Positions 13,448-64,000 are shown, counted from the stretch's first letter. The stretch: DNA of 64,000 nucleotides from an uncultured Bacteroidia bacterium (GCA_903897145.1 CAIUAN010000018.1:50889-114888), one strand, 5' to 3'. A program made the numbers and translations. The notes: a model not told the origin generated them from the sequence alone.

Positions 13448-13521
13448 ACAGTAAGGCGAACCTTTAAATGTAATATCTGGATTGCAAATAACCTATTTAT
13501 TGCAATCTATGAATAGCAAAC

Positions 13522-13557
13522 AAAAAGAGCAGATTCATTGACGAATCTGCTCTTTTT
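13522..13557. terminator. Bidirectional intrinsic terminator
   Basis: AAAAAGAGCAGATTC-ATTGAC-GAATCTGCTCTTTTT hairpin between convergent nagB and the M13 peptidase gene. Confidence 0.7.
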
Positions 13558-13573
13558 AGTTTTAATCTATCGT

Positions 13574-21026: not shown

Positions 21027-21710
21027 ATGAAAACTAGAGTATCTGTCCTATTTATGTTTGCAGGCATCCTGTTTGCAATCTGTTTGTTGATCGCCAACAT
21101 TTTAGCTACAAAAATCATTTTGATTGGTTCTTGGGCTGCTCCTGCTGGAGTGCTGATTTTTCCAATTGCCTATATCCTTAACGATGTCATTGTGGAGGTT
21201 TGGGGTTATGATAAGGCTCGGCTCATTATTTGGGCAGGCTTTGCTGTTAATTTATTAGCTGTCTTATTCTTTTCGTTGGCCATTGTCGTCCCTGCTGCAC
21301 CATTCTGGACGAATCAGGATGCTTTTGCTACCATCTTAGGAAGCACTCCACGTATTATTTTGGCTAGTCTTATGGCCTATTTGATCGGGTCATTTCTTAA
21401 TGCATATGTAATGAGCAAGATGAAGGTTTTGATGAAAGGAAAGGAGTTTTCGGTTCGTGCAATTCTTTCAACATTAGTGGGGGAGACTGCTGATTCGTTA
21501 ATCTTTATTACGATAGCTTTTGCTGGAAATCTGCCTGTTAACGTTTTGTTAATTATGATTCTCACTCAGGCTTGTATCAAGACTGTTTATGAGATTATTG
21601 TCTTGCCGCTTACAATTGTTGTTGTTCGCTGGGTGAAGAAGATTGAAGGGGTTGATTCGTACGATCATCATGTGTCATATAATCCATTTCGGACTAAACA
21701 AGTTGATTAG
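21027..21710 (+). CDS. yhhQ: Queuosine precursor transporter (YhhQ/VUT family)
   Basis: 227 aa membrane protein with YILNDVIVEVWGY and GETADS motifs typical of YhhQ. It is followed by queC and queF. Confidence 0.85.
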   Translation: MKTRVSVLFMFAGILFAICLLIANILATKIILIGSWAAPAGVLIFPIAYILNDVIVEVWGYDKARLIIWAGFAVNLLAVLFFSLAIVVPAAPFWTNQDAFATILGSTPRIILASLMAYLIGSFLNAYVMSKMKVLMKGKEFSVRAILSTLVGETADSLIFITIAFAGNLPVNVLLIMILTQACIKTVYEIIVLPLTIVVVRWVKKIEGVDSYDHHVSYNPFRTKQVD

Positions 21711-21712
21711 CT

Positions 21713-22366
21713 ATGAATAAAGCATTAGTCGTTTATTCCGGTGGTCAAGATTCAACAACTTGTTTATACTGGGCTAAGAAGAATTTTGAATCGGTAGAAG
21801 CAATCGCATTTAATTACGGGCAACGTCATCTTACAGAACTTACAGCTGCCAAAGAAATTGCAGCAAAAGCAGAAGTTTCCTTGACTATTTTTAATCTTGA
21901 TCTGATGAGTGGTGTTTCTCACAACTCATTAACAGATCCCGCGATGACTGTCGAATTATCGGAGGACGATCGACCACCTAACACCTTGGTTGAGGGTCGT
22001 AACATGTTGTTTCTTACGTATGCTGCAGTTTTTGCGAAGACGAAAGAGATAAAAAATATAATTACCGGTGTGGGTCAGGCTGATTTTAGTGGCTATCCCG
22101 ATTGTCGGAATGAATTTATTCTTTCCTTAAATCAGACTCTTAATCTCTCGATGGATTATGAGTATAAAATACATACTCCTTTGATGTGGCTAGACAAGAC
22201 GGCAGTTTGGAAGATGGCTGATGATTTAGCTATTTTTGATTTGGTAAAAGATCAGACCATCACTTGCTACCATGGGATAATTGGTGCAGGTTGCGGTGAG
22301 TGTCCTTCGTGTAAACTTCGAAATAGAGGACTAGTAAACTATTTAAAATCTAAGAATAATGGATGA
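21713..22366 (+). CDS. queC: 7-cyano-7-deazaguanine synthase
   Basis: [14 protein letters not shown]-loop and a C-terminal CGxCxxC zinc cluster. Confidence 0.9.
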
Positions 22367-49978: not shown

Positions 49979-50112
49979 TATTTGATTTTAGGTCTATCCC
50001 ATTTTGCAAAATCTTTTCAAACACTCCCGCTATTGTCGCAATGACCAGAGATCCAAATGTAAATAGAAAACACAGGGCCAGATGCAAAATAAACTAAAGT
50101 TCTCATTATAGT

Positions 50113-50820
50113 TTAAAAATGAGTTGATAAGCTATATCTGTCATGAGGTCTAAAGTCTGTGTTTTTTTCTAAAACTTTAAAAAGAAGTTCATTAACAGCA
50201 ATAATAATATTTGAATAGATATCTAACCTCTTTCTTTGAAATACCTCAGACATTTCAATAGTGTTTTTTGTTCCATGAAAAATATTATTACGCACAATGT
50301 AAATAAATCGGATAATATCGTTTTTTAATTTCCCGATTTTAATTTCATTAGATTTTAATAAGTTTTCAAATTCTTTTTTAAAGTTTTCCCTTTCAGATTC
50401 TGTAATGCGATTGTCTGGTGTTATCTTTGAAATTGTTTCAATAGTCCTTTCAATAGCATCTTTGCCCTTTATTATTTTAATAAACAACTCTTTATCATTA
50501 TTGTCGACCTTTGAAAAGATAAAGTCAATCATTGCTTTGTACTTTTGACCTTCAGATGGCTCAATTTCCTTTCCATCTTCGACTTTTTTATGGAATGCAG
50601 TTAGTTCACTTTTTTTCAAACTTTCTTCCCAATCAAAATTATAGAATGAATTAAAAGCAAAGTAAGCATAAATGAATTTGGAGGGTTCAAATAATTTCCA
50701 CGCTCCTCTTTCGTATTCAACAATATGGTCATATTTATCCGTAATGTAGTGTAACCTATATAGGTCCTCAATTTCTTCAGCGAAATTGTTTCGATTAATT
50801 ATTGTCAATTCTTCTTCCAT
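50113..50820 (-). CDS. HEPN-motif protein (putative RNase toxin/abortive-infection-type effector)
   Basis: The C-terminal helix carries VRNNIFHG, an Rx4H HEPN signature. The sequence is all-alpha, Lys/Glu-rich and 235 aa. There is no attC-like element 3' of it. Confidence 0.45.
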   Translation of the reverse strand: MEEELTIINRNNFAEEIEDLYRLHYITDKYDHIVEYERGAWKLFEPSKFIYAYFAFNSFYNFDWEESLKKSELTAFHKKVEDGKEIEPSEGQKYKAMIDFIFSKVDNNDKELFIKIIKGKDAIERTIETISKITPDNRITESERENFKKEFENLLKSNEIKIGKLKNDIIRFIYIVRNNIFHGTKNTIEMSEVFQRKRLDIYSNIIIAVNELLFKVLEKNTDFRPHDRYSLSTHF

Positions 50821-50837
50821 GTCATTTTTTTAGAGTT

Positions 50838-50919
50838 GCTGCTAACGGTTTGCGTGTAGGCGATGTTACCTTGTGTTGCGCCTGCGGCAAGGTAATATTG
50901 CTTACACGCTGTTACAGGC
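50838..50919 (-). repeat. attC-like site A
   Basis: The left box GCTGCTAAC and right box GTTACAGGC flank a 22-bp stem (GCGTGTAGGCGATGTTACCTTG / CAAGGTAATATTGCTTACACGC) containing three G-T wobbles on the plus strand. The site starts 10 nt after the upstream stop codon and ends 17 nt before the next ATG. Confidence 0.75.
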
Positions 50920-50929
50920 TGGCGTTCTT

Positions 50930-52117
50930 TCAGTTTGCAAGTCGTTTGAGTTCATCACTATATTTTAAAAGCTCCGTTTCTACTTTATTTACTATGTCTG
51001 TAATTGTTGACCATTCAGCGTCAAGGATTTTTTTAACTTCAGCTTCATCAACTTCAGTCATTTCATCGGTTTCAAATTTCCAAGTGTGTTGAAAATGAAC
51101 AAGCCATTTTTTCCCGCTTGGTTTTTTGTGTCCTGGAATGTTTTCAAAAGCTTTGCAAAACAAATTTTGAATTTCACTATCACCTGGAGAAATTACTGTC
51201 TTAAATACTGCTTTCTTTTTAGACCATATAAAGTCAATTTCAAAAAGAAAATTTTCTTTTAAAGGCCAACCTTGTCCTTTTTTGGGGATGATGTCATTCA
51301 GTGTTTTTGTTAAAAACCTTGCATAACCTTTATGCTTAGAACCCATAACCCAATCAGATTGGGTTATTTTATCAACAAAAACTGGATAAAGTTCTAAAGC
51401 AATATCGGACTTGTTTTCAAATACAAAGTCTAAAAGTTCCCTGTGATTTTTGTATATTTTAACTGCAAGTTCATTTAGTTCATCATTTTTCATTAGTTCT
51501 CGTTTTATAGTTGTTAGGTAGTCAGAGATATACTGGTGAACTCCGACATTTAAAGATTTACCGTGAATTTGAAGAACTCTGTCGGCTTGTTCAATAATTT
51601 CTTCATATGAATATGGTGCGTAAAATTCCCTTTCTTTTGGTGCTAATGGTGTCTCGCCAGTAGGCGTTAAGTAAACAAAAACTTTTTTGTGTTTTATAAA
51701 TGTGTCATTTACGATTGTTCTATATTTTGCAAGCTGATTTGAATGATCTTGCGTATCAATTTTATTCTCAATGCAAATTACAATAGTGTCGAATACAATT
51801 AAAAGGTCAATGTTTTTCCATTCTCTACGAAGTTCTACATTATTAAAATTTAGTTCTTCTATTTCGAATTCGTCCAAATCACTTGCAATTTCTGATGTTG
51901 CAATATCACGAAGAAATTTTGTAAGGAAGAGTTTGCCAAGTCCGTGAGTTCCATTCGGATCAAGAAGCCAAGCTAAAAAATTTGAATGTCGAATTTCAGC
52001 CCGTGAAATATTAAGTATTTGAAAAATATTAGGTGTCTTTAACTGCAACTCTATTTTGTCGAAGTCAAGGTCGTTAAGCAAGTGTCGATATTTTTCTCTA
52101 ATTTCTTGTTCTGTCAT
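50930..52117 (-). CDS. PD-(D/E)XK nuclease family protein (PDDEXK_4-like)
   Basis: N-terminal NIFQIL..EIRHSNFLAWLLDPNGTHGLG segment and the core IDLLIVFDTIVICIENK (D...ExK). Confidence 0.6.
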   Translation of the reverse strand: MTEQEIREKYRHLLNDLDFDKIELQLKTPNIFQILNISRAEIRHSNFLAWLLDPNGTHGLGKLFLTKFLRDIATSEIASDLDEFEIEELNFNNVELRREWKNIDLLIVFDTIVICIENKIDTQDHSNQLAKYRTIVNDTFIKHKKVFVYLTPTGETPLAPKEREFYAPYSYEEIIEQADRVLQIHGKSLNVGVHQYISDYLTTIKRELMKNDELNELAVKIYKNHRELLDFVFENKSDIALELYPVFVDKITQSDWVMGSKHKGYARFLTKTLNDIIPKKGQGWPLKENFLFEIDFIWSKKKAVFKTVISPGDSEIQNLFCKAFENIPGHKKPSGKKWLVHFQHTWKFETDEMTEVDEAEVKKILDAEWSTITDIVNKVETELLKYSDELKRLAN

Positions 52118-52143
52118 AATTTCTTAGTTGTTTTCTTACGCTT

Positions 52144-52224
52144 GCTTATAACGTTTTGCGTGTAGGCGATTTTGCCTTGTGTTGTGCCTGCGGCAAGGCA
52201 ATATTGCTTAAACGCTGTTATAGC
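52144..52224 (-). repeat. attC-like site B
   Basis: About 85% identical to site A, with a compensatory A-T to G-C change in the stem (TTGCCTTG/CAAGGCAA versus TTACCTTG/CAAGGTAA). Boxes are GCTTATAAC and GTTATAGC. Confidence 0.75.
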
Positions 52225-52231
52225 TAGTTTA

Positions 52232-53281
52232 TTAATCTGCATTGTCGTTGTAATTAATTAATCCATCAATTGTATTTTCAAAAAATGACAATAAGATTCT
52301 TTGCAATAGTTCCCTTGGCGCATTCTCTTCAGCAATATTTTGATCTTCTCGAAACTTTATAACGCAATTATTTCTTCTAACCATCCCTCTATTAACTGCT
52401 GCCGGACTAACCGCTGAGTATAATTGCAGTATTTTAATATGACCGTCTATTGAAAGTCGCATTCTCAAAATAACCTTTGTCGTAAGTAATTTATTTAGTT
52501 CGCGTCTTGCAATATTTGTTCTGGGTCCCTCATTGATTTGACTCCAATTTTCCGGATCTTCATTTCTTGAAATTTCAATTTTGTACCCCTGATCATTTGC
52601 CCCTTTTAAAAATAACCTAAATGCATCACGATCATCTAATATATAATTTCCATGTCTATCAAATAAATGATTATTACGGTTATTTGAGCCAAAAAAGCTA
52701 GCGTTAGTAAAATATAGTCTGTCAATGTGGGCGCAACTGAAAATAAGCGAGAAAACTGAATTATTTAAAACAATATTATTCAAAAGCTTGTCCTCTGCAG
52801 TGTATGCAAAATCTCGTAGTTCTCTTTGACAAAAGGCAATTATGTCTGTGTATGCAATAAGGTTTTCTTGTAATGCATTTTTAATTTGGAGGGGTTGTTC
52901 ATTTCGAGCAAACTGTAATATGTTATCAAAATTTATAGGACAATACTTCCATAAAGAAGAATAATTGCCATGAAAATAGGGAAGGTCTGGTGGAGAAATA
53001 TTTCCGTTAAATGATAAGTTCGGTAAACCTAATTGGTCGCAGAGATATGATATTGGTGGAAATGTTCCTATCATTAAACCTGTAGTAGTGGCGCAATGAA
53101 TTTCCTCTAAATAAGGATGTTTTTCAAATGGCGGGACTATTGATAATACTCCGTTGTTATCTGCAATTACTTGAATTGAATGCTGATTTATTAATTCGTA
53201 ATTGTGTGGGTTACTATGATCTATATCTGCTAATCCTAGAGCTTCACTAAGTAGTTGTAGATTATTGTTTCGATGTATCAT
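52232..53281 (-). CDS. UDG-superfamily-like protein (hypoxanthine/uracil-DNA-glycosylase-like motifs), function unknown
   Basis: Five collinear motif resemblances to the TIGR04274-type glycosylases. These are LMIGTFPPISY (ILGSxPS), YFHGNYSSLWKY (YYxxPxNxFW), YTDIIAFCQRE (WDVxxxCxR), YFTNASF (FNGxxA) and LYSAVSPAA (LPSTSPA). There are long insertions between them. Confidence 0.45.
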   Translation of the reverse strand: MIHRNNNLQLLSEALGLADIDHSNPHNYELINQHSIQVIADNNGVLSIVPPFEKHPYLEEIHCATTTGLMIGTFPPISYLCDQLGLPNLSFNGNISPPDLPYFHGNYSSLWKYCPINFDNILQFARNEQPLQIKNALQENLIAYTDIIAFCQRELRDFAYTAEDKLLNNIVLNNSVFSLIFSCAHIDRLYFTNASFFGSNNRNNHLFDRHGNYILDDRDAFRLFLKGANDQGYKIEISRNEDPENWSQINEGPRTNIARRELNKLLTTKVILRMRLSIDGHIKILQLYSAVSPAAVNRGMVRRNNCVIKFREDQNIAEENAPRELLQRILLSFFENTIDGLINYNDNAD

Positions 53282-53299
53282 TGTAATGTAATTTAAATT

Positions 53300-53443
53300 G
53301 GCTATAACGGTTTGAAACTATATGCAGTTGCCGACTGCGTCCGCCAGCTGGCGGATGTCGAATCCCACCACCGATGTTACGGGCTGTAAACTTCACAATC
53401 AGCACAGAAACGGCAATTGTCATATAGTTTTTGTTATGGCGCG
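53300..53443 (-). repeat. attC-like site C
   Basis: Boxes are GGCTATAAC and GTTATGGCGC. The spacer GGTTT is followed by an L-type stem GAAACTATATGCAGTTGCCG / CGGCAATTGTCATATAGTTT with bulged bases and a ~75-nt GC-rich terminal structure. Confidence 0.7.
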
Positions 53444-53457
53444 TAATTCATTCAATA

Positions 53458-53769
53458 CTAAACATCTATTGAAATACTTACTTTTCCACCCAGTCCTTTT
53501 TCAACAATGTCAAAAAGCGTACTCAATGTTATATTGCTGCCATCATTCTCAACACGAGAAATATAGGTTCTTTTTTTGTCTATGATTTGTCCTAATTCCT
53601 CTTGAGTCATATGTCGCGATTCTCTTGCCTTTTTTAATAAAAGTCCGATTTTAAAAGATTCGGCTTCTCTCTCAAGATTATCGCGTCTTTCAGTCCCTTT
53701 TTCTCCGTAAACCTGATCCTTAATTTGAGGCCAGGTCGCAATGTCTTTGTTGTTATTTTCTGCTTTCAT
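53458..53769 (-). CDS. XRE-family HTH antitoxin (HigA-like)
   Basis: HTH segment TQEELGQIIDKKRTYISRVENDGSNITLSTL. It overlaps the toxin gene by 17 nt. Confidence 0.8.
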   Translation of the reverse strand: MKAENNNKDIATWPQIKDQVYGEKGTERRDNLEREAESFKIGLLLKKARESRHMTQEELGQIIDKKRTYISRVENDGSNITLSTLFDIVEKGLGGKVSISIDV

Positions 53770-54094
53770 AATACTCTTTCATTAAATTTATTGCTTTCTC
53801 AATTTCGTTTTTCGGCGTTTTCTGTGTTTTTTTCTGAAATCCATTTAGAAGGATCACTAATTTTCCTTTATCGAAGAAGCAGAAAACACGCCAAATGTCT
53901 GTCCCTAATAGAATTCTCGCTTCATAAAGTCCATTTGTCCCAGTAATTTGTTTTAAATAATTTGTCGGAATTCTCTCTAATGTCTCGATGGCTTCAATGA
54001 TTTTGAAGATCTTGTTCTGAACCTTGATTGGTTGCTTTTTCAAGAAATCTACGAAAAAGTTTTTGTATGCAATTACTTTTCGAATTTTCTCCAT
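53753..54094 (-). CDS. RelE/ParE-superfamily toxin (HigB / phage Gp49-like, DUF891)
   Basis: LYEARILLGTDIWRVFCFFDKGKLVILLNGFQKKTQKTPKNEIEKA matches the Gp49-like toxin pattern. Toxin-first gene order is as in higBA. Confidence 0.8.
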   Translation of the reverse strand: MEKIRKVIAYKNFFVDFLKKQPIKVQNKIFKIIEAIETLERIPTNYLKQITGTNGLYEARILLGTDIWRVFCFFDKGKLVILLNGFQKKTQKTPKNEIEKAINLMKEYYESRK

Positions 54095-54112
54095 CTGTCA
54101 TTAAAATAAACC

Positions 54113-54144
54113 CAAAGGTAACTTTAAAGTTACAATTTTCCAAA
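54113..54144 (-). promoter_or_regulatory. Cassette-internal promoter with overlapping palindromic operator for the TA pair
   Basis: The minus strand reads TTTG-N20-TACCTTTG, i.e. Bacteroidota -33/-7 boxes, 18 nt upstream of the toxin ATG. The perfect 16-bp palindrome GTAACTTTAAAGTTAC (54118-54133) overlaps the -7 box. Confidence 0.5.
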
Positions 54145-54174
54145 TCGAAATTGATGTGTCGGGGTATTTATTAT

Positions 54175-54310
54175 GCGCCATAACGGCTGACGCTATGGCA
54201 AGTGCGGGAATAAATTGCTGCTCAACTGTCTGCCAGCACTGAACTTAATTTGAAGCACAAAGCTTCATTTAAGCATTGAACCCGCTTTTTTGCCAAACGG
54301 CTGTTATGCG
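54175..54310 (-). repeat. attC-like site D
   Basis: Boxes are GCGCCATAAC and GTTATGCG. Imperfect stems are TGGCAA/TTGCCA and GCGGG/CCCGC. It contains a 59-nt internal module shared with site F. Confidence 0.7.
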
Positions 54311-54317
54311 TTCGTTT

Positions 54318-55142
54318 TTATTCCAGCTTAATCTTTCTTGTTTTTCCTGTTTGTAATTCTTTTAGTATGTCCAACTTCTGAATTTTTGAATTGTCAAGTT
54401 TATAAACTAAAATAAATTTCATTTCTGTCAAGTCAATGAATGTAGTATAAAGAGTTCCACCTATTTTGCCTGTCGAGTCTTTTTGAGGTAGTTGAACTGC
54501 CTTTCCAATTACATTACCTACAGCTTTTAGGTCAATAGTGTCCTTTGGATTTCTTGCGTCCAATTCATCTAAACCTTTCTGAATTATCGGGTATCTCCAG
54601 CAAGTCATTTCAGTTTGAATAGTGTCTGACAGATTAAAATTTGTCGAAACAAGTCGATTGTTTTTGATTTCAACAATATTTTTAACACCATTTATCCATT
54701 CAACAATTACCGCTTTACCATTTTTGTCACCCAATAAAATGTGTGCGTTATTTAGAGCATTTTTTTCTTGTTCTAAGTACTGGATTACTTCATCTACTGT
54801 CCTACATTTTGCCAATATCTTGTCCGTGAAATTGCCTTTTGGAGATGAATAACCTGAGGGGATTTTTTGTTCTGGTGTTACAGCTCCGTCAATTACCAAT
54901 CCTTTCTCATTAATACCTCCTTGTCCAAAATTTTTCCAGCCGTACCAAATCCGACCCAATTCGTCTTTTGAACTTGGGTTGATTTGTATATATGGCTTTA
55001 CATCATACCAGTAATCTTCATTATTTATAAAATATATTTTACCAGTCTTACTGTCTATATAGTAAATTATAGAACAAGCGAATGATTTTTCGGAAATTAT
55101 AATAATGGAAATTAAAAGTACTAGATATTTAAATGCCTTCAT
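54318..55142 (-). CDS. Secreted Ntn-hydrolase-like protein (choloylglycine hydrolase / C45 acyltransferase-like)
   Basis: The signal peptide ends ...SEKSFA, immediately followed by Cys (CSIIYY), the arrangement of an N-terminal nucleophile. A GINEKGLVIDG motif resembles the GxNEKGL motif of this fold. Confidence 0.5.
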   Translation of the reverse strand: MKAFKYLVLLISIIIISEKSFACSIIYYIDSKTGKIYFINNEDYWYDVKPYIQINPSSKDELGRIWYGWKNFGQGGINEKGLVIDGAVTPEQKIPSGYSSPKGNFTDKILAKCRTVDEVIQYLEQEKNALNNAHILLGDKNGKAVIVEWINGVKNIVEIKNNRLVSTNFNLSDTIQTEMTCWRYPIIQKGLDELDARNPKDTIDLKAVGNVIGKAVQLPQKDSTGKIGGTLYTTFIDLTEMKFILVYKLDNSKIQKLDILKELQTGKTRKIKLE

Positions 55143-55170
55143 TTGTGATGGTTGTTTCGTCTTTTAAATG

Positions 55171-55329
55171 CCGCATAACGTAGGAAGCTACACGCAGGGG
55201 CGGACTGCGGGTCCCGAATCCTCGGGATCAAGCCGAAAAGCAGCCCGGGCGGAATCGAAGATCAGCGAAGCTAAAGATGCACACCGAAAACCACCGCTGC
55301 CGCACTTGCCGGGTAGCTGAAGTTGTGCG
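55171..55329 (-). repeat. attC-like site E
   Basis: Boxes are CCGCATAAC and GTTGTGCG (one T-G wobble when paired). There is an AGCTAC/GTAGCT stem and a GC-rich terminal structure (CCCGA-ATCC-TCGGG, GCCCGGGC). Confidence 0.65.
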
Positions 55330-55337
55330 TTCGTGCT

Positions 55338-56099
55338 TTATTTTAAACAATTTGGAAGCATTTCTAAAAATCCTAAACATTTGTCGTAATTCAATTCATA
55401 ATAATTTACTCCCAAATTTATAGTCTCATAATATCGGGCTTGGTTTACTTTATAATATTCCTCTGATGATATTTTCCAATAATCACGACCCAATTTCTCT
55501 GTAATAAACCACTTTTCAAGTAATCGGGCAGCTCTGCCGTTTCCATCTCGAAACGGATGAATATGTGCAAATCTTAAATGAATCAACGAGGCAAAATAAA
55601 AGACTTCTTTTTCGCTAAGGCTTGAAGAAATCAATTCTTCAATATCGTGGAAAAATGTTTTCATTTCTTGTTTAACAAATTCAGGTTCAATTGCCATATA
55701 AGCTAAGCCTGACTTACCAAAAACGCCTACCTGCTCAATCCGATATTTCCCTCTTTTGCTTTTAATTAGTAAGGTCTCTGAAAAGATTTTATGACAAGTC
55801 AACAAATTTGCCTCATTCAAATTATTTTTTTGGGCAAATTCGTACGCTTCAATCAAATCTTCTATCTCTTCTATCTCTTTTCCAATTTTGAATTTATCTT
55901 TGTTTAATTCATAATTCATATATGAGTTCAAGTCAATGCTATTTCCCTCAATATTCGAAGAATAAATCGCTGAAGATTTTGTCAAATAGTCGAAACTTCT
56001 TTTGTTTTCAGAAAAATCAAAATCCTGAATTAATCTGGGAATTTTATTTCCAATAGTCTGAATATAAGTGTCTAAATATTTTCTTTCAGTTATTCTCAT
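55338..56099 (-). CDS. Fic/DOC family protein (class II, intramolecular inhibitory motif)
   Basis: Fic motif HIHPFRDGNGRAARLL. The N-terminal SSNIEGN matches the (S/T)xxxE(G/N) inhibitory helix. Confidence 0.9.
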   Translation of the reverse strand: MRITERKYLDTYIQTIGNKIPRLIQDFDFSENKRSFDYLTKSSAIYSSNIEGNSIDLNSYMNYELNKDKFKIGKEIEEIEDLIEAYEFAQKNNLNEANLLTCHKIFSETLLIKSKRGKYRIEQVGVFGKSGLAYMAIEPEFVKQEMKTFFHDIEELISSSLSEKEVFYFASLIHLRFAHIHPFRDGNGRAARLLEKWFITEKLGRDYWKISSEEYYKVNQARYYETINLGVNYYELNYDKCLGFLEMLPNCLK

Positions 56100-56118
56100 C
56101 TAGTCAATTTATTAAACA

Positions 56119-56126
56119 CAAATATA
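56119..56126 (-). promoter_or_regulatory. -7 promoter box (TATATTTG) inside the Fic cassette
   Basis: Exact TAnnTTTG on the minus strand, 19 nt upstream of the Fic ATG. Confidence 0.35.
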
Positions 56127-56175
56127 CTCATTTTTATTGTCAAACCCTTATGGTAGTGCAGTTTCCCATAGCATG

Positions 56176-56311
56176 GCGCACAACGGTTTGCAGCTACAAG
56201 AAGTTGGCGATTTCGGAGACGAAAACTGTCTGCCAGCACTGAACTTGATACGAAGCACAAAGCTTGATATAACCACTGAACCGCCAATTTCTTGTAGGTG
56301 CTGTTATAAGC
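56176..56311 (-). repeat. attC-like site F
   Basis: Boxes are GCGCACAAC and GTTATAAGC. The spacer GGTTT is followed by the stem GCAGCTACAAGAAGTTGGCG / CGCCAATTTCTTGTAGGTGC (one G-T wobble, one mismatch). It shares a 59-nt module with site D. Confidence 0.7.
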
Positions 56312-56319
56312 TGCCTTTC

Positions 56320-56580
56320 TTATCGTTCTCGCCATTTGCTTTCTAATCCCATAAAATCCTCCAAATGATACACAGAGTCAGAATAAGAGAAAAGAATGGT
56401 TCGGTCGTCAACAATTGTGTATTTTTTTCTTTTTTCAACCGGCAACTTTTGTATGTCTGGAAAATATTTTAATGGAACAATAATTACACGACCATCTTCA
56501 AGTTTCAGTGATATTTTTCCCACGCTATCGAAATTTAATTTTTCGATACAAATTTTGGTATTTTTAAGTGTAGTTGTCAT
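56320..56580 (-). CDS. DUF2442 domain protein
   Basis: 86 aa with LEDGRVIIVPLKYFP...L segments typical of DUF2442. Its start directly abuts the stop of the DUF4160 gene. Confidence 0.7.
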   Translation of the reverse strand: MTTTLKNTKICIEKLNFDSVGKISLKLEDGRVIIVPLKYFPDIQKLPVEKRKKYTIVDDRTILFSYSDSVYHLEDFMGLESKWRER

Positions 56581-56859
56581 TTATTTTAATTTTATAGTAG
56601 TTATTTTTTGACCATTTTTCACCTTGTTAAATGAGTCAATCAGTATTATTTGATTCTTTTTAATCAAACTAATTGCTTGATTTAATTCCTTCTCGTTTAG
56701 TGTACCTTTTTCAGCAACTTTAAAAGTCTCCAACCAAACTTTTGCAGAACGTTGTCGATTTCCTTTTTCTTTAACAATATGCAAATGCGGTGGCTCATTA
56801 AGCGCATCGTAGGCGAAAATAAAAAAAGTCAGAAATTTATAAATAGCAATTTTAGGCAT
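56581..56859 (-). CDS. DUF4160 domain protein
   Basis: MPKIAIYKF...NEPPHLHI is typical of DUF4160. The ATG at 56859 is preferred over the TTG at 56865 used in the track. Confidence 0.7.
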   Translation of the reverse strand: MPKIAIYKFLTFFIFAYDALNEPPHLHIVKEKGNRQRSAKVWLETFKVAEKGTLNEKELNQAISLIKKNQIILIDSFNKVKNGQKITTIKLK

Positions 56860-56909
56860 AATCAAATATAGATTTTAATTTTCAACTTGTCAAGTTCTAT
56901 TTTAAGGTT

Positions 56910-57053
56910 GCTTATAACGGACACACACATGCGCTGTGCTGGCTGTAAGTATCTAAATAGCAAGCAAGTATCAACCAGCACCAAAGCTACTAAATACGTA
57001 AAATGCTCAAAGTTCCGACAGCCAGCATAGCCGCTATGTGTGATGTTAGCACC
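56910..57053 (-). repeat. attC-like site G
   Basis: Boxes are GCTTATAAC and GTTAGCACC. The stem is CACACATGCGCTGTGCTGGCTGT / ACAGCCAGCATAGCCGCTATGTGTG with bulges. Confidence 0.7.
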
Positions 57054-57067
57054 ATTTTTTTTTGTCG

Positions 57068-58456
57068 TTAATTCCAAAAGTCTAATAAATTGGTTATCGC
57101 CTCGTTAAACAATTTTGGTGCTTTGATACCCAAAATCAATTCTCCGTTTTCGTTTAGCAAAAATCCAATCTCTATTTCAATGATTTCTTGCTCTTTACTG
57201 CCGTATAGAACAACCGTTCTAATAATTTTGAATTTGGGGTAATGTTTTTGTATGTAATTTTTCTCAATGTATTCATAATTATTGAGTTCCTTTATTCCGT
57301 CTTTGCGGAATTTATATTTCTTACCTTCTACATTTATAACTTCACTGCGTCCAAAATCTATCAAAATTAAGTCAGGAATATAAATTATTTGTTCTTTATC
57401 GCCGTCTTTGTATTTGGCTCTGTCTTTGTATTTTGCTAATGGAACTGGTTCTCCTTCCTTCGTATAAAAATATCCCTTTTCGCATCCTGCGTGATTTTCA
57501 AATATAGAGTAACCTTCTGTAAAATTTTCAACAACCAAATGAATGAAAATCGTTCCTAATTTTTCGCCGTCAATGTCGTATTTCCAATAATCTGAATTTA
57601 ATTCAGCTTTTGGAACAGTTAGTCCTTGTAATGAGATATTTAACTTGTTTGCTATTTGAACAAATTTATTTGTTTTTCCTACATGTTCTTGTTTTAAACC
57701 ATGTTGAGTAATAACAAGTTGATTTTTCCATTCTAATTTACGTAAAACTGCACAAATTATGCTCAATGCTCCAATATTGGGGTCGTGTGAAAGTCCGCCA
57801 CTTTTAAATAATCTGCCCGAAATTTCGATTTTATTTTTCGATTTTGTAAGCGTAATTGGAACATTTCCTTTTGGTGCTTTTCGCATATTTGCTTTTAATT
57901 CAATAATTTCGTCTACTGTTTCAAATGGCTTAAAAATAGAGAAATCTAATTTTTTGCCCAAAATCTCAACACCCAAAGTTAATAAAAGTCGTGTTCCAAA
58001 AATATACGTGTCGGTTGGATTTTCCTTTTGCTCAATTTGCAAACTGTAAAGCATTATTTTTCTTACAGTTGGATAATAGTTTTGAATGAATACAAATTTT
58101 GAACAACGTTGATAAACTCCTGTATTTCTGCTTTCTTTGTCGTCTGTCTTTGTTTCTTCAATTGCGTAAATTGGTTGGTCATTGATTGTTGGTTCGTCTT
58201 TTTGGTAAAAAATTAGAAAATCTGTGAAACTCGAATTTCCTGAAACAGTTTTTATGTAAACCTTATCAACTTTGTTACAGCGAAAACCTGTAACTTCATA
58301 AGTGAATGTAAATTTGTTGTTTTCAAGTATCGGAAATATTCGCAAAGTGTCCACAAAAACTGCAAATCTATAATCTTTGGCAAACTTTTGAAATATAGTT
58401 TGTAAGACTTCTTTTTTAGGGCGTTCTTCTGTTAAAAACCAAAGATTATTTTTCAT
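57068..58456 (-). CDS. Putative restriction endonuclease (N-terminal recognition region, C-terminal PD-ExK catalytic motif; type IIS-like architecture)
   Basis: The start is re-assigned to the ATG at 58456 (MKNNLWFLTEERP), overlapping the methylase stop by 11 nt. The C-terminal IPDLILIDFGRSEVINVEGKK fits PD...ExK. It lies last in an operon with two methylases. Confidence 0.5.
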   Translation of the reverse strand: MKNNLWFLTEERPKKEVLQTIFQKFAKDYRFAVFVDTLRIFPILENNKFTFTYEVTGFRCNKVDKVYIKTVSGNSSFTDFLIFYQKDEPTINDQPIYAIEETKTDDKESRNTGVYQRCSKFVFIQNYYPTVRKIMLYSLQIEQKENPTDTYIFGTRLLLTLGVEILGKKLDFSIFKPFETVDEIIELKANMRKAPKGNVPITLTKSKNKIEISGRLFKSGGLSHDPNIGALSIICAVLRKLEWKNQLVITQHGLKQEHVGKTNKFVQIANKLNISLQGLTVPKAELNSDYWKYDIDGEKLGTIFIHLVVENFTEGYSIFENHAGCEKGYFYTKEGEPVPLAKYKDRAKYKDGDKEQIIYIPDLILIDFGRSEVINVEGKKYKFRKDGIKELNNYEYIEKNYIQKHYPKFKIIRTVVLYGSKEQEIIEIEIGFLLNENGELILGIKAPKLFNEAITNLLDFWN

Positions 58457-59513
58457 TTTTTCGTAAAATAAAGAGTTGTTCTTGAATATATTTTTTGTGT
58501 TTGCTGTCGCTGTTGCTATTACTTTTAAAACGTAAATAATCAAACTCAACTAATTCAACTGTTCCAAATTGTTCCAAAACTGAAATTATTTTTTGTTTTG
58601 GCATAATTCCTTCTGTGTTGTAACTTAATATCAGTGTTTTATATTTACCATTTTTAGCAATTTTATGCAATTCTTGTAAACCGTTTTCTGAATTGCAGAA
58701 TAATGATTTTTGATTTTCATAATTTCGCATCCCTGAAACTCCTTTAATTTCAGGATTGTCATATTTTGCAATCGTTTCCATTAAATGATAATTCGGTGCA
58801 TATTGTCGTTGATTATATGGTGGGTCAAGGTAGAAAATATCTGCATTTACTTGTTCTAATAAATTGACAGAATTATCATTATATGAAAAATTTTGTTTGT
58901 TATTTTTTACTGTTTCTATCGGTCTTAATTGAATTTTTTTTACGGCTCTTGGGTCCCACTGTTTTTGAAACGCTGCGTAAACTCCTGAAACATTGGCATA
59001 AAAAGGAACTGTTTCGATCAAACAAGCCAATAATGCAAAATATTCATTTTCAATAATTAATTCATTGTTTTTCCAATTTTCAATCTGTTGTCTAATGGTA
59101 TCAATTATTTTTCCATTTTCGTTGTTAAAATACATTCTTGGTAATTCCAAATTTGCTGTTCCTTCCGGCGTATAATTTTGATAAATAAAACCTTCTGTAA
59201 TATCTAAATTATTCAAATATTCTACAACTAAATTCAATGGGGTTGCAAATAACGAATTACTTTTTATATTAATATTTTTCAATAATTTATCAAAAGTCAA
59301 ATCTTGATTGTTTTGAATATATGCACGCTGTAGAATATATGAAAAATACAATAAATCAGATGAATATACCTGATAATCTAATTTTTTAAAAAATCTTCCG
59401 ACATTTGTCGTTCCTGCAAAGAAATCAAAAAACGAATTTCCATTAATTGCTTTTGATTGCATTATTTGATAAATCTTTTCTACTAAGTTCTCTTTGTTTC
59501 CAATAAATCGCAT
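58446..59513 (-). CDS. D12-class N6-adenine DNA methyltransferase
   Basis: MRFIGNK start, FFDFFAGTTNVG (motif I) and YLDPPYNQRQY (motif IV, DPPY). Confidence 0.8.
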   Translation of the reverse strand: MRFIGNKENLVEKIYQIMQSKAINGNSFFDFFAGTTNVGRFFKKLDYQVYSSDLLYFSYILQRAYIQNNQDLTFDKLLKNINIKSNSLFATPLNLVVEYLNNLDITEGFIYQNYTPEGTANLELPRMYFNNENGKIIDTIRQQIENWKNNELIIENEYFALLACLIETVPFYANVSGVYAAFQKQWDPRAVKKIQLRPIETVKNNKQNFSYNDNSVNLLEQVNADIFYLDPPYNQRQYAPNYHLMETIAKYDNPEIKGVSGMRNYENQKSLFCNSENGLQELHKIAKNGKYKTLILSYNTEGIMPKQKIISVLEQFGTVELVEFDYLRFKSNSNSDSKHKKYIQEQLFILRKNEK

Positions 59514-59671
59514 TTCATTTAATTTAAATTATCAAATAATGTTTTCGCTTTTTGCTGTTCAATCGGTTCATAATTAGTAATTAAAACTTCAATACTTGCG
59601 TCTTTATCTCTAATTATAGTTTGATAATTTGAATTTGAATAATTGATGTTTATATAATTAATTCTATATTC

Positions 59672-60454
59672 TTAATTAGTATTTAACCATTTTTTTAAGA
59701 TTTCGTTTGATTTTCCTTTGTGTTCCAAAACATTAGACAAAGCAAATTTTATTTTTTGACTATTTAGTTTATCTAATGTATTCAATAATTCTCGTTCTTC
59801 TTTTTCTGTCCAACCTTTGAAACCACGTTTTCCGTCGTTGTAAGTACCTGTGGTTATTAAATATGGTGGGTCGGCGTAAACAAAATCATTTTCGGTTAAA
59901 ATTGAAAAATCAAATTCTTCAAAACTTTTACAAGTAAATTCTATACTATTCTGTTTTAAACGATTATGAAACATTTCCAAATTTTGTTTCATTGTGGCGT
60001 TAAAACTGCTGCGTTCTCTACCAAACGGATTATTAAATTCGTGGTCGTTGTTAAATCTTATTTGATGATTAAAGGAATACGAAATCAATAGAAACAAGTC
60101 CAACGGATTTTTAGTCTTGTTGTAAAATTCTCTTATTTTTTTGAAACCTTCTTCGTTTGTCAAAGACAAATTATATTCAGAAATTCTATTTTGAATATGC
60201 TGTATAATTGTTTGTAAATCTGATTTATAAAATGCTTTATACATTTCAATCAAATAAATCAAATTGTCATTAAAGTAGATTTTATTTGCATTTGTATTAA
60301 TTCCAACATTACATCCACCTGCAAATAAATCAATAAATTGATTGATATTTTTGGGAAATAAAGGCAAAATTTGATTTAATATTTTTTGCTTTCCGCCAAT
60401 ATAATTTAATGGCGACTTTATTGTATTATTTTGTTTTATTTGCGTTCCGTTCAT
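59672..60454 (-). CDS. Dam-family (D12-class) N6-adenine DNA methyltransferase
   Basis: LNYIGGKQK, FIDLFAGGCNVG and YADPPYLITTGTYNDG motifs. Confidence 0.85.
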   Translation of the reverse strand: MNGTQIKQNNTIKSPLNYIGGKQKILNQILPLFPKNINQFIDLFAGGCNVGINTNANKIYFNDNLIYLIEMYKAFYKSDLQTIIQHIQNRISEYNLSLTNEEGFKKIREFYNKTKNPLDLFLLISYSFNHQIRFNNDHEFNNPFGRERSSFNATMKQNLEMFHNRLKQNSIEFTCKSFEEFDFSILTENDFVYADPPYLITTGTYNDGKRGFKGWTEKEERELLNTLDKLNSQKIKFALSNVLEHKGKSNEILKKWLNTN

Positions 60455-60470
60455 ATTTTTTGCTTTTCTG

Positions 60471-60478
60471 CAAAATTA
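60471..60478 (-). promoter_or_regulatory. -7 promoter box (TAATTTTG) for the RM operon
   Basis: Exact TAnnTTTG on the minus strand, 16 nt upstream of the Dam-like ATG. It is preceded by the tandem 8-mer TTAACGAA x2 (60487-60502). Confidence 0.35.
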
Positions 60479-60524
60479 ATCAATTTTTCGTTAATTCGTT
60501 AATTTGGGCGTATCGTTTTTTATT

Positions 60525-60659
60525 GGTGCTAACGTTCGAGGCTATAAAACGTAGGGGTTTGCGTGCTTGCGAATGTATCAACCGATACAAACCTTGCCAG
60601 CGGGATAAAATGTTGCTAAACCTCTTAAACCCCTATGTTTTATGAGCCTTTGTTGTGCC
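60525..60659 (-). repeat. attC-like site H
   Basis: Boxes are GGTGCTAAC and GTTGTGCC. The stem is AGGCTATAAAACGTAGGGGTTT / AAACCCCTATGTTTTATGAGCCT, with one extrahelical C and one G-T wobble on the plus strand. Confidence 0.7.
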
Positions 60660-60671
60660 TTCGTTGTTTTT

Positions 60672-63600
60672 TTATTCCTTCAATTTAATTACTAATTCGT
60701 TAAGACTTTTATCTATAGTGTTTATTGCGGCATTATCATCAAAGAGTTTGTGTGCTTTGATAGACAAATCTGAAAGCTCTTTATGTACTTTGTTGTTTTT
60801 GTCAAAATCAGGAATAAAAACAGGCGGGTTAATTTTAAAAGACCTTGAATCAGATGAATTTAAAATATACGATTCAGTTACTGGAGCATTTAGGATAGCA
60901 CAAATATAATGGGCTTCTTCAAGTGTTATGAAACCCCCAGAACTATTTTGTGAAATTGTAACGGCATGGTTTTGAAATTGAGGCCTTTTCAATTCGCCCC
61001 AAGGTGTCAAAACGGAGCTTACCACACAAGACTGCCATTTTGAATTGTCTCTAAATGCAACATAATGGTCAGCAAAACTATACTCACCAACACGAGCTAA
61101 AGCATAAAATTCTGTATTATGCTTTTCTCCAATTATTTTTTCGTTGTATTGGGTTTGGGATTCAAAAACCGTTTTGAATTTATTAAAATATGTCGCTAAT
61201 AATTTTGAACCTTTAGTTAATTCTTTAATTGTTATTGGACTTCTTGTATTTGTTTTTTCATAAGGAAACGGAACTATATAATTTGACTTCAACAAATGAA
61301 ATCTTTCAATGTCCACACCTTTAATCAAAGGATGTAAATACTTCTTCTCTAAAGGAAATGATTCTAATGGTATTTTATATTTCGATTTTTTGTTTTGATA
61401 ATTCTTGATGATAACTGTATCTTTTGAAACAGGCATATCGTTGTCAACTTCCAACAAAAATAATTCTTGAGGATAAAACTCAATCCCTTCTCTTCCCTTG
61501 TAGCTGGCAACGCCCGATATTTTAGTAAAAGAGTTAAGTTCCACTTCATTTTTAGCACAAGAAAAAATTGTGCTATTTTCATTTGCTTGTCCAGCCAGCT
61601 CTATTGACTCCGTGAATACATCTTTTAACAATGAATAGTCCGTAATATTAGAATAAGTTTTCAAGTCATAACCTTTATTCTTTATGAAGTATTTCAATGG
61701 AATACCCTGCTTGTAATCAACCTTTTTATTAGAAAAAAAGAATGTTAAAAACTTATGGGTAACTGGGTCAAAAGGATGACCAGCTTTTGTCCAATCATAG
61801 AGTTGTTGAAAATACAAATTTCTATTCTCTTCAAGTTTAAATTGTCTGAACCCTTCATAGGTTTGTTGGAAAATGATTGTTTGAGGCATTAAAAATGCCA
61901 AAACGCCATTCTCTTTTAACCAATTCATAGCTGAAACATTAGAGATTAATGCACAAATATTTAAGTTAATTCCACCAGTTAAACTGTCGCCTGAGAATAA
62001 ATGTCTTTCGATACATATAGATTTTACTCGTTCTCTGTAACCTGCTGGCAAGTTCTTCCAATCAATCCAAGGAGGGTTACCTACAATTAAATCAAATTTA
62101 CCAAGGTTTGCGGTAGTCAAAAAGTTTGTAACAATTCTTGCCCAGATTCCATTCCATTCATTTCTTTCAAGGTCAACAAATTGCTCTGCTAATGAATTAA
62201 TTCTATTAGATATTTCAGTAGTTAAATCCTTTTCAGGGATAATTGCCGACAACTTTTCTTGTATTGAAACAGCATCTAAATTATGAATGTCTTGTTCAAT
62301 ACTTGTCATTGTTTTAGAAAACAAAACTGGGTCTGAAACAGCACTTTTCGGCAAGTCAATATTAATAAAACCTTTAATGGTCTTGATGCTGTAATTGATA
62401 CAATCAATATTATCAATTACAACTTTAGAAGGTACATATGAAGAGTCACCAAGATAAACTGGAATTTCAAATTCATCATCGTCTGAAATTAGGTGAGATA
62501 TATTAATAAAGTAATTAATTCTTGATGTAAGAACGGCTAATGGGTTTAAGTCTATTGCTTTAACCCTATTTAAGACCGCATTCAATCTTTCTTTATTATT
62601 GAGTTGTATTGTTTCAAGTAAAACGTGTTTTATCAAAACAGTAACGAAAGTACCAGAGCCTGCACAAGGGTCAAGTGCAGTCCAATTCTGCTTAGCCGGG
62701 TTTAGATTGATTGTTTCCCTAATTAAATTATCGGCTAACCAAGATGGTGTATAAAACTCACCAAGGCTATGTCTAACCTTGTCGGGTATTATTTTCATAA
62801 ATAATTCCCTGAATAAATCTTGGACATTTTCGCCTGTTTGAAATAGTGCTTTGTCTTCGTATTGTGTTAAAATTTTAAAGATTTCTTGAACCAATCCACC
62901 AATTTCGTTTGTCCATTGGTTTGATGAACAATACCAAGCAAAAAAGTCGCCTTCCAATAAATTACCAATTCCAAGACTTCTGAAAATTGCACCTTCTTCA
63001 AGTGAATTCATTTGATGTCTTAATGTATCAAAGTCAGTTTCGGATAATTTATTAAAGTCAATTAGGCTTTTGTTAAACCTGATTTTACTAATAACTTTAT
63101 ACGCAATTATCTTAACAATAATAGCATAAGTAGTTTGAATAGCATATAATGCTAAATATTCATCTTCGTTTGTTTTTAACTCTTCGCCTATTGTTTCTTC
63201 TAACGATTTCTTTCTATCTTCAATTGCTTTTTGCTTTGAGTTATCATCGTGTGCTAATCTGAATAACTCTTTCCATTCATTAAAAAGCATCAGGGAACGC
63301 CCAGTTGGACTGTTTTTCAAAGTGTTGAATAAACAAAGCGTTAATTTGTTTGAAAGACTTTTGTCTGATTCGCAAAAGTCTTTTACTAAATTTTCTGGCG
63401 TTAAAGCAACTTTATCAAGTAATACAATACTTTTAATAATTCTATCTATATGTTTTGAAGATAGTTTTTCAAACGCGCCTTCATTTATAAGACCATTTTC
63501 AATATTGATTAATTTACATTGAGTACCATCAGTCACAAGACCAAAATAATCTAAAGTATGTTTTTTATTTAAGCCCTTTAGATAGTCAATAAGTTGAGAG

Positions 63601-63938
63601 GAAGCCTTGTCTTTATGTTCTGTTGATAAGAGTTTAGATGTATGTTTAAATTCAATTACCAATGCACCAATTTTACTGTCAATTCTACCTTTAGAAATAT
63701 GCCTTTCGGTATTGATTGTCTTTTCTTTTTCTGGATAGTATTTTAGTCCAAGAGTATCCTTTATAAACGAAAAAAGTTCAAGTTCAAAAATTGAAACGAT
63801 ACTTGCTTCGTTTTCAGCTTTTTTTGATTCTGTATAAATATCGTTACTCACTTCAGCCAACAGTTCAGCATATTCGGTTGTCCGAATTAGTGTTTCTATT
63901 TGCTTTATTTTGAATTTGCTTTTCTTTATTTTGTCCAT
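60672..63938 (-). CDS. Type IIG/IIL restriction-modification enzyme (fused PD-ExK nuclease, gamma-class N6-adenine methyltransferase and target-recognition region)
   Basis: N-terminal GRIDSKIGALVIEFKH (D...ExK, MmeI-like), GEFYTPSWLA, motif I LDPCAGSGTF and motif IV VGNPPWIDW. It is 1088 aa with a long C-terminal region. Confidence 0.8.
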   Translation of the reverse strand: MDKIKKSKFKIKQIETLIRTTEYAELLAEVSNDIYTESKKAENEASIVSIFELELFSFIKDTLGLKYYPEKEKTINTERHISKGRIDSKIGALVIEFKHTSKLLSTEHKDKASSQLIDYLKGLNKKHTLDYFGLVTDGTQCKLINIENGLINEGAFEKLSSKHIDRIIKSIVLLDKVALTPENLVKDFCESDKSLSNKLTLCLFNTLKNSPTGRSLMLFNEWKELFRLAHDDNSKQKAIEDRKKSLEETIGEELKTNEDEYLALYAIQTTYAIIVKIIAYKVISKIRFNKSLIDFNKLSETDFDTLRHQMNSLEEGAIFRSLGIGNLLEGDFFAWYCSSNQWTNEIGGLVQEIFKILTQYEDKALFQTGENVQDLFRELFMKIIPDKVRHSLGEFYTPSWLADNLIRETINLNPAKQNWTALDPCAGSGTFVTVLIKHVLLETIQLNNKERLNAVLNRVKAIDLNPLAVLTSRINYFINISHLISDDDEFEIPVYLGDSSYVPSKVVIDNIDCINYSIKTIKGFINIDLPKSAVSDPVLFSKTMTSIEQDIHNLDAVSIQEKLSAIIPEKDLTTEISNRINSLAEQFVDLERNEWNGIWARIVTNFLTTANLGKFDLIVGNPPWIDWKNLPAGYRERVKSICIERHLFSGDSLTGGINLNICALISNVSAMNWLKENGVLAFLMPQTIIFQQTYEGFRQFKLEENRNLYFQQLYDWTKAGHPFDPVTHKFLTFFFSNKKVDYKQGIPLKYFIKNKGYDLKTYSNITDYSLLKDVFTESIELAGQANENSTIFSCAKNEVELNSFTKISGVASYKGREGIEFYPQELFLLEVDNDMPVSKDTVIIKNYQNKKSKYKIPLESFPLEKKYLHPLIKGVDIERFHLLKSNYIVPFPYEKTNTRSPITIKELTKGSKLLATYFNKFKTVFESQTQYNEKIIGEKHNTEFYALARVGEYSFADHYVAFRDNSKWQSCVVSSVLTPWGELKRPQFQNHAVTISQNSSGGFITLEEAHYICAILNAPVTESYILNSSDSRSFKINPPVFIPDFDKNNKVHKELSDLSIKAHKLFDDNAAINTIDKSLNELVIKLKE

Positions 63939-63954
63939 TATATTTTTAAAGTGT

Positions 63955-63962
63955 CAAAGATA
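63955..63962 (-). promoter_or_regulatory. -7 promoter box (TATCTTTG) for the type IIG gene
   Basis: Exact TAnnTTTG on the minus strand, 16 nt upstream of the ATG at 63938. Confidence 0.35.
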
Positions 63963-64000
63963 GACTTTCTTAATTGTTTCTTGTTTAGTTAAGTATCGCT

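Follow-up and report, generated by a model that had tools for sequence, protein, structure and literature searches.

Toward one end of a 64,000-nt stretch of DNA from an uncultured Bacteroidia bacterium (GCA_903897145.1, CAIUAN010000018.1:50889-114888), referred to here as the window and numbered from its first nucleotide, a run of genes alternates with long hairpins. The minus strand carries every open reading frame (ORF) between 50113 and 63938, and between these co-oriented genes stand eight hairpin elements (A to H, 50840-60658) that share a single orientation, a number sufficient for an integron array. The G+C content is 0.25-0.36 across this region (from about 50 kb on) versus about 0.38-0.43 in most of the remaining window, which encodes ordinary chromosomal functions. 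Each element was delimited as the plus-strand span from an AAC to a GTT triplet, and when AAC...GTT pairs over the whole 64 kb were ranked in a duplex-energy scan, elements A to H came out on top, with no comparable site elsewhere. The region from 50075 to beyond 64000 is almost certainly the cassette array of a chromosomal integron carried on the minus strand, each of the eight hairpins being an attC site (Table 1).

Table 1. Cassettes, genes and attC sites of the array, in order of transcription. Coordinates are those of the 64-kb window; triplet spans (AAC...GTT) are read on the plus strand. The owner is the cassette to which the attC body belongs.
Feature	Coordinates	Strand	Triplet span	Span length (nt)	Content or owner
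Cassette 1	60533..64000 (window end)	minus			1088-aa Eco57I-like type IIG restriction-methylase (ORF 60672-63938)
attC H	60527..60658	minus	60531-60654	124	Owner: type IIG restriction-modification cassette
Cassette 2	56918..60532	minus			3615 nt; three genes, type II restriction-modification: Dam-type methyltransferase 59672-60454; second D12 methyltransferase 58446-59513; type II restriction enzyme 57068-58456
attC G	56912..57051	minus	56916-57047	132	Owner: three-gene type II restriction-modification cassette
Cassette 3	56184..56917	minus			DUF4160 56581-56865 and DUF2442 56320-56580 (Pfam)
attC F	56178..56309	minus	56182-56305	124	124-nt type; owner: DUF4160/DUF2442 cassette
Cassette 4	55179..56183	minus			1005 nt; Fic/SoFic-like protein 55338-56099 (Pfam, PADLOC)
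attC E	55173..55328	minus	55177-55324	148	Owner: Fic cassette
Cassette 5	54184..55178	minus			C45/AAT-family hydrolase 54318-55142 (Pfam, NCBIfam)
attC D	54178..54309	minus	54182-54305	124	124-nt type, conserved loop; owner: C45/AAT hydrolase cassette
Cassette 6	53308..54183	minus			HigB-like Gp49 toxin 53753-54094 and HTH_3 antitoxin 53458-53769 (Pfam)
attC C	53302..53439	minus	53306-53435	130	Owner: HigB/HigA cassette; junctions confirmed in L043
Cassette 7	52152..53307	minus			349-aa protein 52232-53281
attC B	52146..52223	minus	52150-52219	70	70-nt type; owner: 349-aa cassette
Cassette 8	50846..52151	minus			PD-(D/E)XK nuclease 50930-52117
attC A	50840..50917	minus	50844-50913	70	70-nt type; last complete attC of the array; owner: PD-(D/E)XK cassette
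Cassette 9 (truncated, terminal)	50075..50845	minus			235-aa Apea-like HEPN-type protein 50113-50820

The elements have the anatomy of attC sites, with R'' and R' boxes bearing invariant AAC and GTT triplets around an imperfect palindrome (the L boxes) and a variable loop. In sites reconstituted by circularising each cassette in silico, the R stem measures 9-11 bp, a long L stem comes next, and the terminal region varies in size from 4 to 83 nt. The base beside AAC is a pyrimidine (Y), and the next base is mostly A rather than Y. Within the array the sites are heterogeneous, with at least five sequence types; attC A and attC B, which share 86% identity, are adjacent paralogues of the short type. 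Comparisons were made with loci in public assemblies, designated by L-numbers: L043 and L044 represent a variant strain with the same chromosomal flank, L040 and L042 another genome, and L005 an array from Halpernia. A family of 124-nt sites (54178-54309, 56178-56309, several sites in L005, L040:9854-9977 and L042:3147-3270) occurs with different genes in different genomes; its loop is conserved (…CTGTCTGCCAGCACTGAAC…GAAGCACAAAGCTT…), and its stems and R boxes are variable.

The original prediction, made from the DNA alone, held that the left (plus-strand) box of each element pairs with the right box of the next element downstream and can be poorly complementary to that of its own hairpin. All 12 boxes quoted in its favour were found in place with the sequences given, and the pattern was confirmed when Watson-Crick matches were counted over the six variable positions outside the invariant triplet. 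The left box of one element and the right box of the element preceding it (the cognate pair) matched at 37 of 42 positions (BA 4, CB 5, DC 6, ED 5, FE 5, GF 6 and HG 6, each out of six), as against 24/48 for the two boxes within one element and 12/42 in the opposite register. When all injective assignments of left to right boxes were enumerated, only 2 of 40,320 scored this high, and the second exists solely through the identity of B-left with G-left (GCTTATAAC). With G.T pairs on the plus strand also counted, cognate pairs gave 40/42 versus 31/48 within elements, again with 2/40,320 assignments reaching the score. The same rule was recovered in the independent arrays L005, L031 and L043, where 95 of 96 cognate positions matched versus 40 of 114 within sites, and it also holds in L002, L028 and L048. 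The boxes are not equally similar to one another, with a mean of 5.3/6 for cognate pairs versus 2.46/6 for non-cognate pairs, and the pattern is therefore not the product of a shared consensus.

Folding of the hairpins was significantly better than that of shuffled controls for every element except E (for attC A, -22 kcal/mol with a z of -4.9). Circularisation in silico, which had been proposed as a check, improved the fold in six of the seven cassettes by 2.6-7.9 kcal/mol, and the summed energy was -201.3 kcal/mol for the reconstituted sites versus -172.5 kcal/mol for the sites as integrated. For the attC bodies B to G, the cognate neighbour was the best of the eight possible left-flank donors. 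In integrons the recombining bottom strand has a lower folding energy and more G.T pairs, and its extrahelical bases are found on one arm and the cleaved AAC on the other (PMC5027507). The plus strand of the window is the bottom strand relative to the minus-strand genes, and it displayed this same preference: it was more stable than the minus strand in 8/8 sites, contained 29 rather than 12 G.T pairs, and carried single-base bulges on its 3' arm in C (a single T), E, G and H (a single G), the other four sites having mismatches instead.

The box pattern alone is compatible with a crossover at either the left or the right triplet, since either would restore complementarity on circularisation. 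The folding gain on circularisation, the strand asymmetry and, decisively, junctions in other assemblies place the crossover at the left (plus-strand) AAC, which is the R' of the bottom strand. The attC body therefore belongs to the gene at higher coordinates, upstream on the coding strand. The Fic, HigBA and truncated HEPN-like cassettes recur at 97.8-99.9% DNA identity beside different neighbours. At least four neighbourhoods contain a 100% identical copy of the 253-aa Fic protein. In the window and in L046 it stands between DUF4160/DUF2442 and the hydrolase; in L043/L044 it follows another HigBA pair, with the 349-aa gene directly behind it; in L045/L047 a PIN pair precedes it and another HigBA pair comes next; and in further contigs known from gene tables only it comes after a Phd/YoeB pair.

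On the coding strand, the DNA of the Fic cassette is identical from GTTGTGCGCC on, and the attC bodies upstream of that point are not related to one another. The window, L043 and L045 all retain the E-type attC body at the 3' end of the cassette, with identity running through ...CCTACGTTA, past which the versions split into TGCGG (window), TAGCC (L043) and CCAAC (L045). The sequence that follows the crossover in L043, TTATAGCCAATTTAAATTAC, opens the 349-aa cassette; in the window that cassette is found behind a C-type attC. The distal half of the box thus moves with the downstream cassette. The HigBA cassette is likewise identical from GTTATGGCGC through a terminal GTTA, with its C-type body kept and a different neighbour on each side in L043. 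A 778-nt segment of the terminal cassette is 99.9% identical in L040/L042, where it lies behind a D-type attC and an IS66 element; in that genome the segment adjoins the IS66 transposase. Identity starts at GTTAGCAGC, confirming the R' junction of attC A, and ends at window position 50075 (L040:10746), where L040 continues into a 283-aa gene. The homologous cassette of L048 has two genes and closes with an attC, the R'' of which (GCTGGTAAC) agrees with the start box of that same cassette (GTTACCAGC). Comparison with L040 and L048 shows that the last cassette of the window is truncated, having lost its second gene and its attC, and that the array ends at about 50075. The truncation is common to the variant strain L043 and so predates the strain split.

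The pairing statistics, these junctions and a cassette present in triplicate in L005 agree that borders lie at G/TT (the slash marking the crossover) and that the distal half of R' belongs to the next cassette, and the attC body stays with the gene upstream of it (E-type with Fic, C-type with HigBA), both as in integrons. The junctions in L040/L042, L043 and L045 support the original proposal of recombination at the AAC/GTT triplet with each cassette carrying its own ends; the borders fall on the triplets and not away from them, and the proposed search of metagenomes and other genomes did find the same cassettes in other orders with junctions at G/TT. The triplicated L005 cassette (L005:6309-6485, 13406-13582 and 21503-21756) is an ORF-less unit of 174 nt, essentially an attC only, with borders at G/TT; each copy follows an attC ending in GTTGGGAAAA, and the third has an internal duplication of about 80 nt. 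At L031:15645-15793 and L032:9542-9690, two arrays that are otherwise 99.98% identical diverge about 148 nt past the R' of an attC and not at G/TT; this off-rule breakpoint could reflect a shared leader, or homologous recombination inside cassettes.

These data bear on the simplest alternative, in which the elements would be intergenic palindromes of an ordinary kind (REP-like repeats or terminators) and the box matches would follow incidentally from their common consensus. Each hairpin does follow a gene and fold stably, A and B are closely similar, and D and F share a loop. A shared consensus, however, cannot yield the cognate score alongside the much lower non-cognate mean; no T-runs follow the hairpins on the coding strand, a terminator scan calls no whole attC, Rfam returned no match, and the junctions of the mobile units map to the triplets. 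The pairing statistics together with the Fic and HigBA junctions refute this explanation, as originally argued, and leave it a negligible probability. A REP-like repeat or an intrinsic terminator was accordingly rejected as a candidate, there being neither a consensus effect nor a T-run. Xer/dif modules were also rejected: dif modules have 28-bp sites with an 11-6-11 architecture, whereas the borders here are 70-150-nt hairpins with the crossover at GTT.

With the pairing statistics, the border position, the ownership of the attC bodies, the strand asymmetry and the re-assortment of cassettes among strains and genomes observed directly, the working of the array would follow that of integrons. 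An integron cassette begins at a core site, G/TTRRRY, and carries an inverse core site that is the complement of its own start. In the published definition, a GTTRRRY sequence marks each of the two cassette boundaries, and the attC is downstream of the gene (PMC3053210). By analogy with integron biology (PMC5027507, PMC3053210), an integron-type tyrosine recombinase would bind the bottom strand, the plus strand of the window, folded as a hairpin, and would cleave between A and C in the R' 5'-AAC-3' in the left box, which corresponds to G/TT on the coding strand. A cassette thus begins with the TT of one R', ends with the G of the following one and comprises its gene or genes, its own R'' box and its attC body, the approximately six bases distal to the crossover in each integrated attC being those of the next cassette. 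In the excised circle the first bases (TTRRRY...) would rejoin their own attC and pair with their own R'', so that boxes match cassette by cassette and not within each hairpin. The circular Fic cassette is predicted to measure 1005 nt with the junction ...CCTACG/TTGTGCGCC, and the box at the junction of attI and cassette 1 is predicted to be GTTGTGCC and to lie about 100 nt upstream of the ATG at 63938; this box would pair with the R'' of attC H. Excision would proceed by attC x attC recombination and insertion at attI, presumably with single-strand chemistry on the bottom strand, replicative resolution and catalysis by the neighbouring recombinase.

A recombinase gene does lie next to the array. 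ENA contig ERZ1426839 encodes an identical first-cassette protein, and its gene table places a 304-aa tyrosine recombinase (PF13495 and PF00589) 197 nt upstream of the cassette 1 gene on the same strand, followed by ilv/leu biosynthesis genes. The stop codon of the recombinase would be at about 64136 in window coordinates. The combination of PF13495 and PF00589 is what we take to be the domain pair of integron integrases. Within the window, a tblastn search with an approximate IntI1 probe, usable only as a negative screen, detected no tyrosine recombinase. Metagenome loci with type IIG or HEPN-type homologues contained arrays and no recombinase, none of the 80 metagenome loci retrieved with a HEPN-family alignment carried a recombinase, and no exact match to the window end turned up among metagenome contigs.

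The array might instead be a relic, that is, an attC cluster without an active integron integrase in which the boxes are a fossil of past recombination. The negative tblastn search, the truncated terminal cassette and the two mismatches in the B/A box pair would suit such a relic. Against it stand the tyrosine recombinase gene upstream of cassette 1 and the nearly identical cassettes found in different orders, including in strains with the same chromosomal flank, which point to recent re-assortment. The L041 contig, moreover, has its start about 6 nt away from the attC A cassette border, which fits population heterogeneity at that site. A relic is therefore improbable. The view that the units were acquired by site-specific recombination is supported: they are almost certainly integron cassettes, and identical ones have been re-assorted among strains and genomes.

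Several observations weigh against assigning the array to an integron. The neighbouring recombinase, a candidate integron integrase, lies outside the window and is known from a gene table only. Integron integrases are typically about 320-340 aa long, and at 304 aa this protein is nearer to Xer recombinases. The attI junction and the promoter Pc would lie beyond position 64000 and so were not seen. A clear single-base bulge is present in only 4/8 sites. In minimum free energy (MFE) predictions for A, B, C, D, F and H, the spacer between the R and L boxes is a bulge of 3-4 nt confined to the 5' (cleaved) arm; for E it is 6:3 and for G 2:1. The unpaired spacer of class 1 and Vibrio attC sites is roughly symmetric, and these MFE predictions did not reproduce the unpaired central spacer that occupies the two arms in class 1 sites and Vibrio cholerae repeats. 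The B/A box pair, singled out from the start as a weaker match, pairs at only four of six variable positions; with G.T allowed, 8/9 positions of the box are paired, leaving one true mismatch. Homologues of the type IIG gene with 81-82% DNA identity carry unrelated attC bodies, which indicates that gene and attC are not permanently coupled over longer times.

Left boxes B (52144-52152) and G (56910-56918) have the same sequence, so that attC F, rather than its own attC A, would be the perfect pairing partner for the start of the PD-(D/E)XK cassette. The attC of the type IIG gene is H-type in the window (60527-60658) and D/F-type in L005:13285-13408. In L028, from 13277 onward, the attC of the type IIG gene is apparently interrupted directly after the AAC of R''.

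The size of the recombinase and the shape of the spacer would both suit an analogous system, in which an Xer-like or other non-integron tyrosine recombinase acts on hairpins that merely resemble attC sites. The orientation of the recombinase along the cassettes and the scarcity of complete integrons among complete Bacteroidetes genomes in IntegronFinder surveys (PMC9024848) could be read in the same way. However, site anatomy, crossover, gene orientation, strand asymmetry and cassette content all fit integrons, as does the presumed integrase domain pair. Co-oriented intI genes are known in Treponema (PMC3607928), and integrons have been reported in Bacteroidota (PMC8618304). We consider such an analogous system unlikely. 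A related and rather speculative idea is that a short, co-oriented 304-aa recombinase without the extra domain of integron integrases, acting on attC-like hairpins with a one-sided bulge spacer, marks a separate or very divergent Bacteroidota lineage of single-strand hairpin recombination. Were this so, such a system would register in standard integron finders only as clusters of orphan attC sites. The unseen recombinase is the only route to greater novelty. The mechanism itself is already known from a long-published integron signature, and it is the element that is new.

As an integron, the array combines features of several known types. Like class 1 integrons, it has imperfect palindromes bounded by ...AAC and GTT..., each attC lies downstream of a promoterless co-oriented gene, and the same cassette occurs in different arrays. 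It differs from them in the length of the sites (70-148 nt between triplets), in the second base after AAC (mostly A, not Y), in the one-sided 3-4-nt spacer bulge, in its defence and toxin cassettes in place of antibiotic resistance, and in its Bacteroidota-like host. With sedentary chromosomal integrons such as the Vibrio cholerae superintegron it shares a chromosomal position between core genes, a long array, toxin-antitoxin and defence cassettes, and cassette content that varies between strains within conserved flanks. The Vibrio superintegron, however, has one homogeneous repeat family where at least five attC types are found here, and the present array is short (eight complete cassettes and one truncated) with unusually large cassettes. 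In Treponema integrons the integrase is co-oriented with the cassettes and lies immediately upstream of the first one, as here (PMC3607928); they belong to another phylum, and the recombinase here is short and known from a gene table. Judged by the 64 kb of the window and nothing beyond, the array would in IntegronFinder terms count as a CALIN (cluster of attC sites lacking an integron integrase), from which it differs by the recombinase gene just past the window end. Given that gene, the element is probably a complete integron.

The main value of these results is a clean annotation, in which an integron array is identified and its cassette borders are fixed to the base. The element is an active-looking chromosomal integron in a Bacteroidota-like genome, and complete integrons were rare in this phylum in a survey of complete genomes (PMC9024848). 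The occurrence of the same cassettes in different orders in public metagenomes, among strains of the same species and in other genomes, provides natural evidence for shuffling outside Proteobacteria. The array also constitutes a small defence island. Restriction-modification is represented in it by a type IIG enzyme and a three-gene type II system, alongside a SoFic-like protein, a HEPN-type protein, a PDC-S26 nuclease and toxin-antitoxin pairs. According to one preprint, no defence system in an integron has more than two components (10.1101/2024.07.02.601686); cassettes 1 and 2 are larger than the systems of at most two components reported there.

The cassette 1 enzyme matches PF07669 in Pfam and REase_MTase_IIG in PADLOC (E 4.9e-154), and the 5' end of its cassette, together with the attI site, lies beyond the window end. 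The restriction enzyme of cassette 2 was identified by PADLOC (E 1.4e-66), and the nuclease of cassette 8 belongs to the PADLOC candidate defence family PDC-S26 (E 1.3e-129). The 349-aa protein of cassette 7 had no family match in Pfam, NCBIfam or PADLOC. The HEPN label of the terminal 235-aa protein comes from one relative named Apea-like HEPN in its source record. Rfam and tRNA scans of the window gave no matches. Among species-representative genomes, the closest relatives of the cassette gene are in Halpernia, Chitinophagales and Flavobacterium assemblies, with a best identity of 91%; for a core peptidase the only named relative is from a Mariniphaga assembly, at 75% identity. Taken by themselves, these relatives point to a Bacteroidota host with low confidence.

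Cassettes 2 (3.6 kb) and 1 (>3.4 kb) are unusually large. The duplex-energy scan found no attC-like hairpin inside cassette 2, and each of its two methyltransferases corresponds to one half of a single fused methyltransferase model in PADLOC. In the region 59514-59691, contigs from four samples end at about 59652-59691. The breaks fall at or beside a spacer of 20% G+C with an imperfect inverted repeat, which separates the two methyltransferase genes; the one at 59678 still lies within the first methyltransferase ORF, about 6 nt from its 3' end. They could reflect low coverage, a hairpin or strain heterogeneity.

At L028:3439-9902, a type III-B CRISPR Cmr gene cluster has a PD-(D/E)XK cassette and the type IIG cassette directly downstream of it. 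The 8.6 kb upstream of the first cassette yielded neither an attC hairpin nor a recombinase; this cassette starts at GTTATGGGCA in A+T-rich DNA and may represent a secondary-site insertion or an attI-like site. In cassette 3 a near-consensus sigma-70-like promoter (TTGACA, 17-nt spacer, TATATT; 56865-56893, minus strand) stands just upstream of DUF4160/DUF2442. Bacteroidota promoters have another consensus, and the promoter is compatible with a self-expressed, toxin-antitoxin-like cassette.

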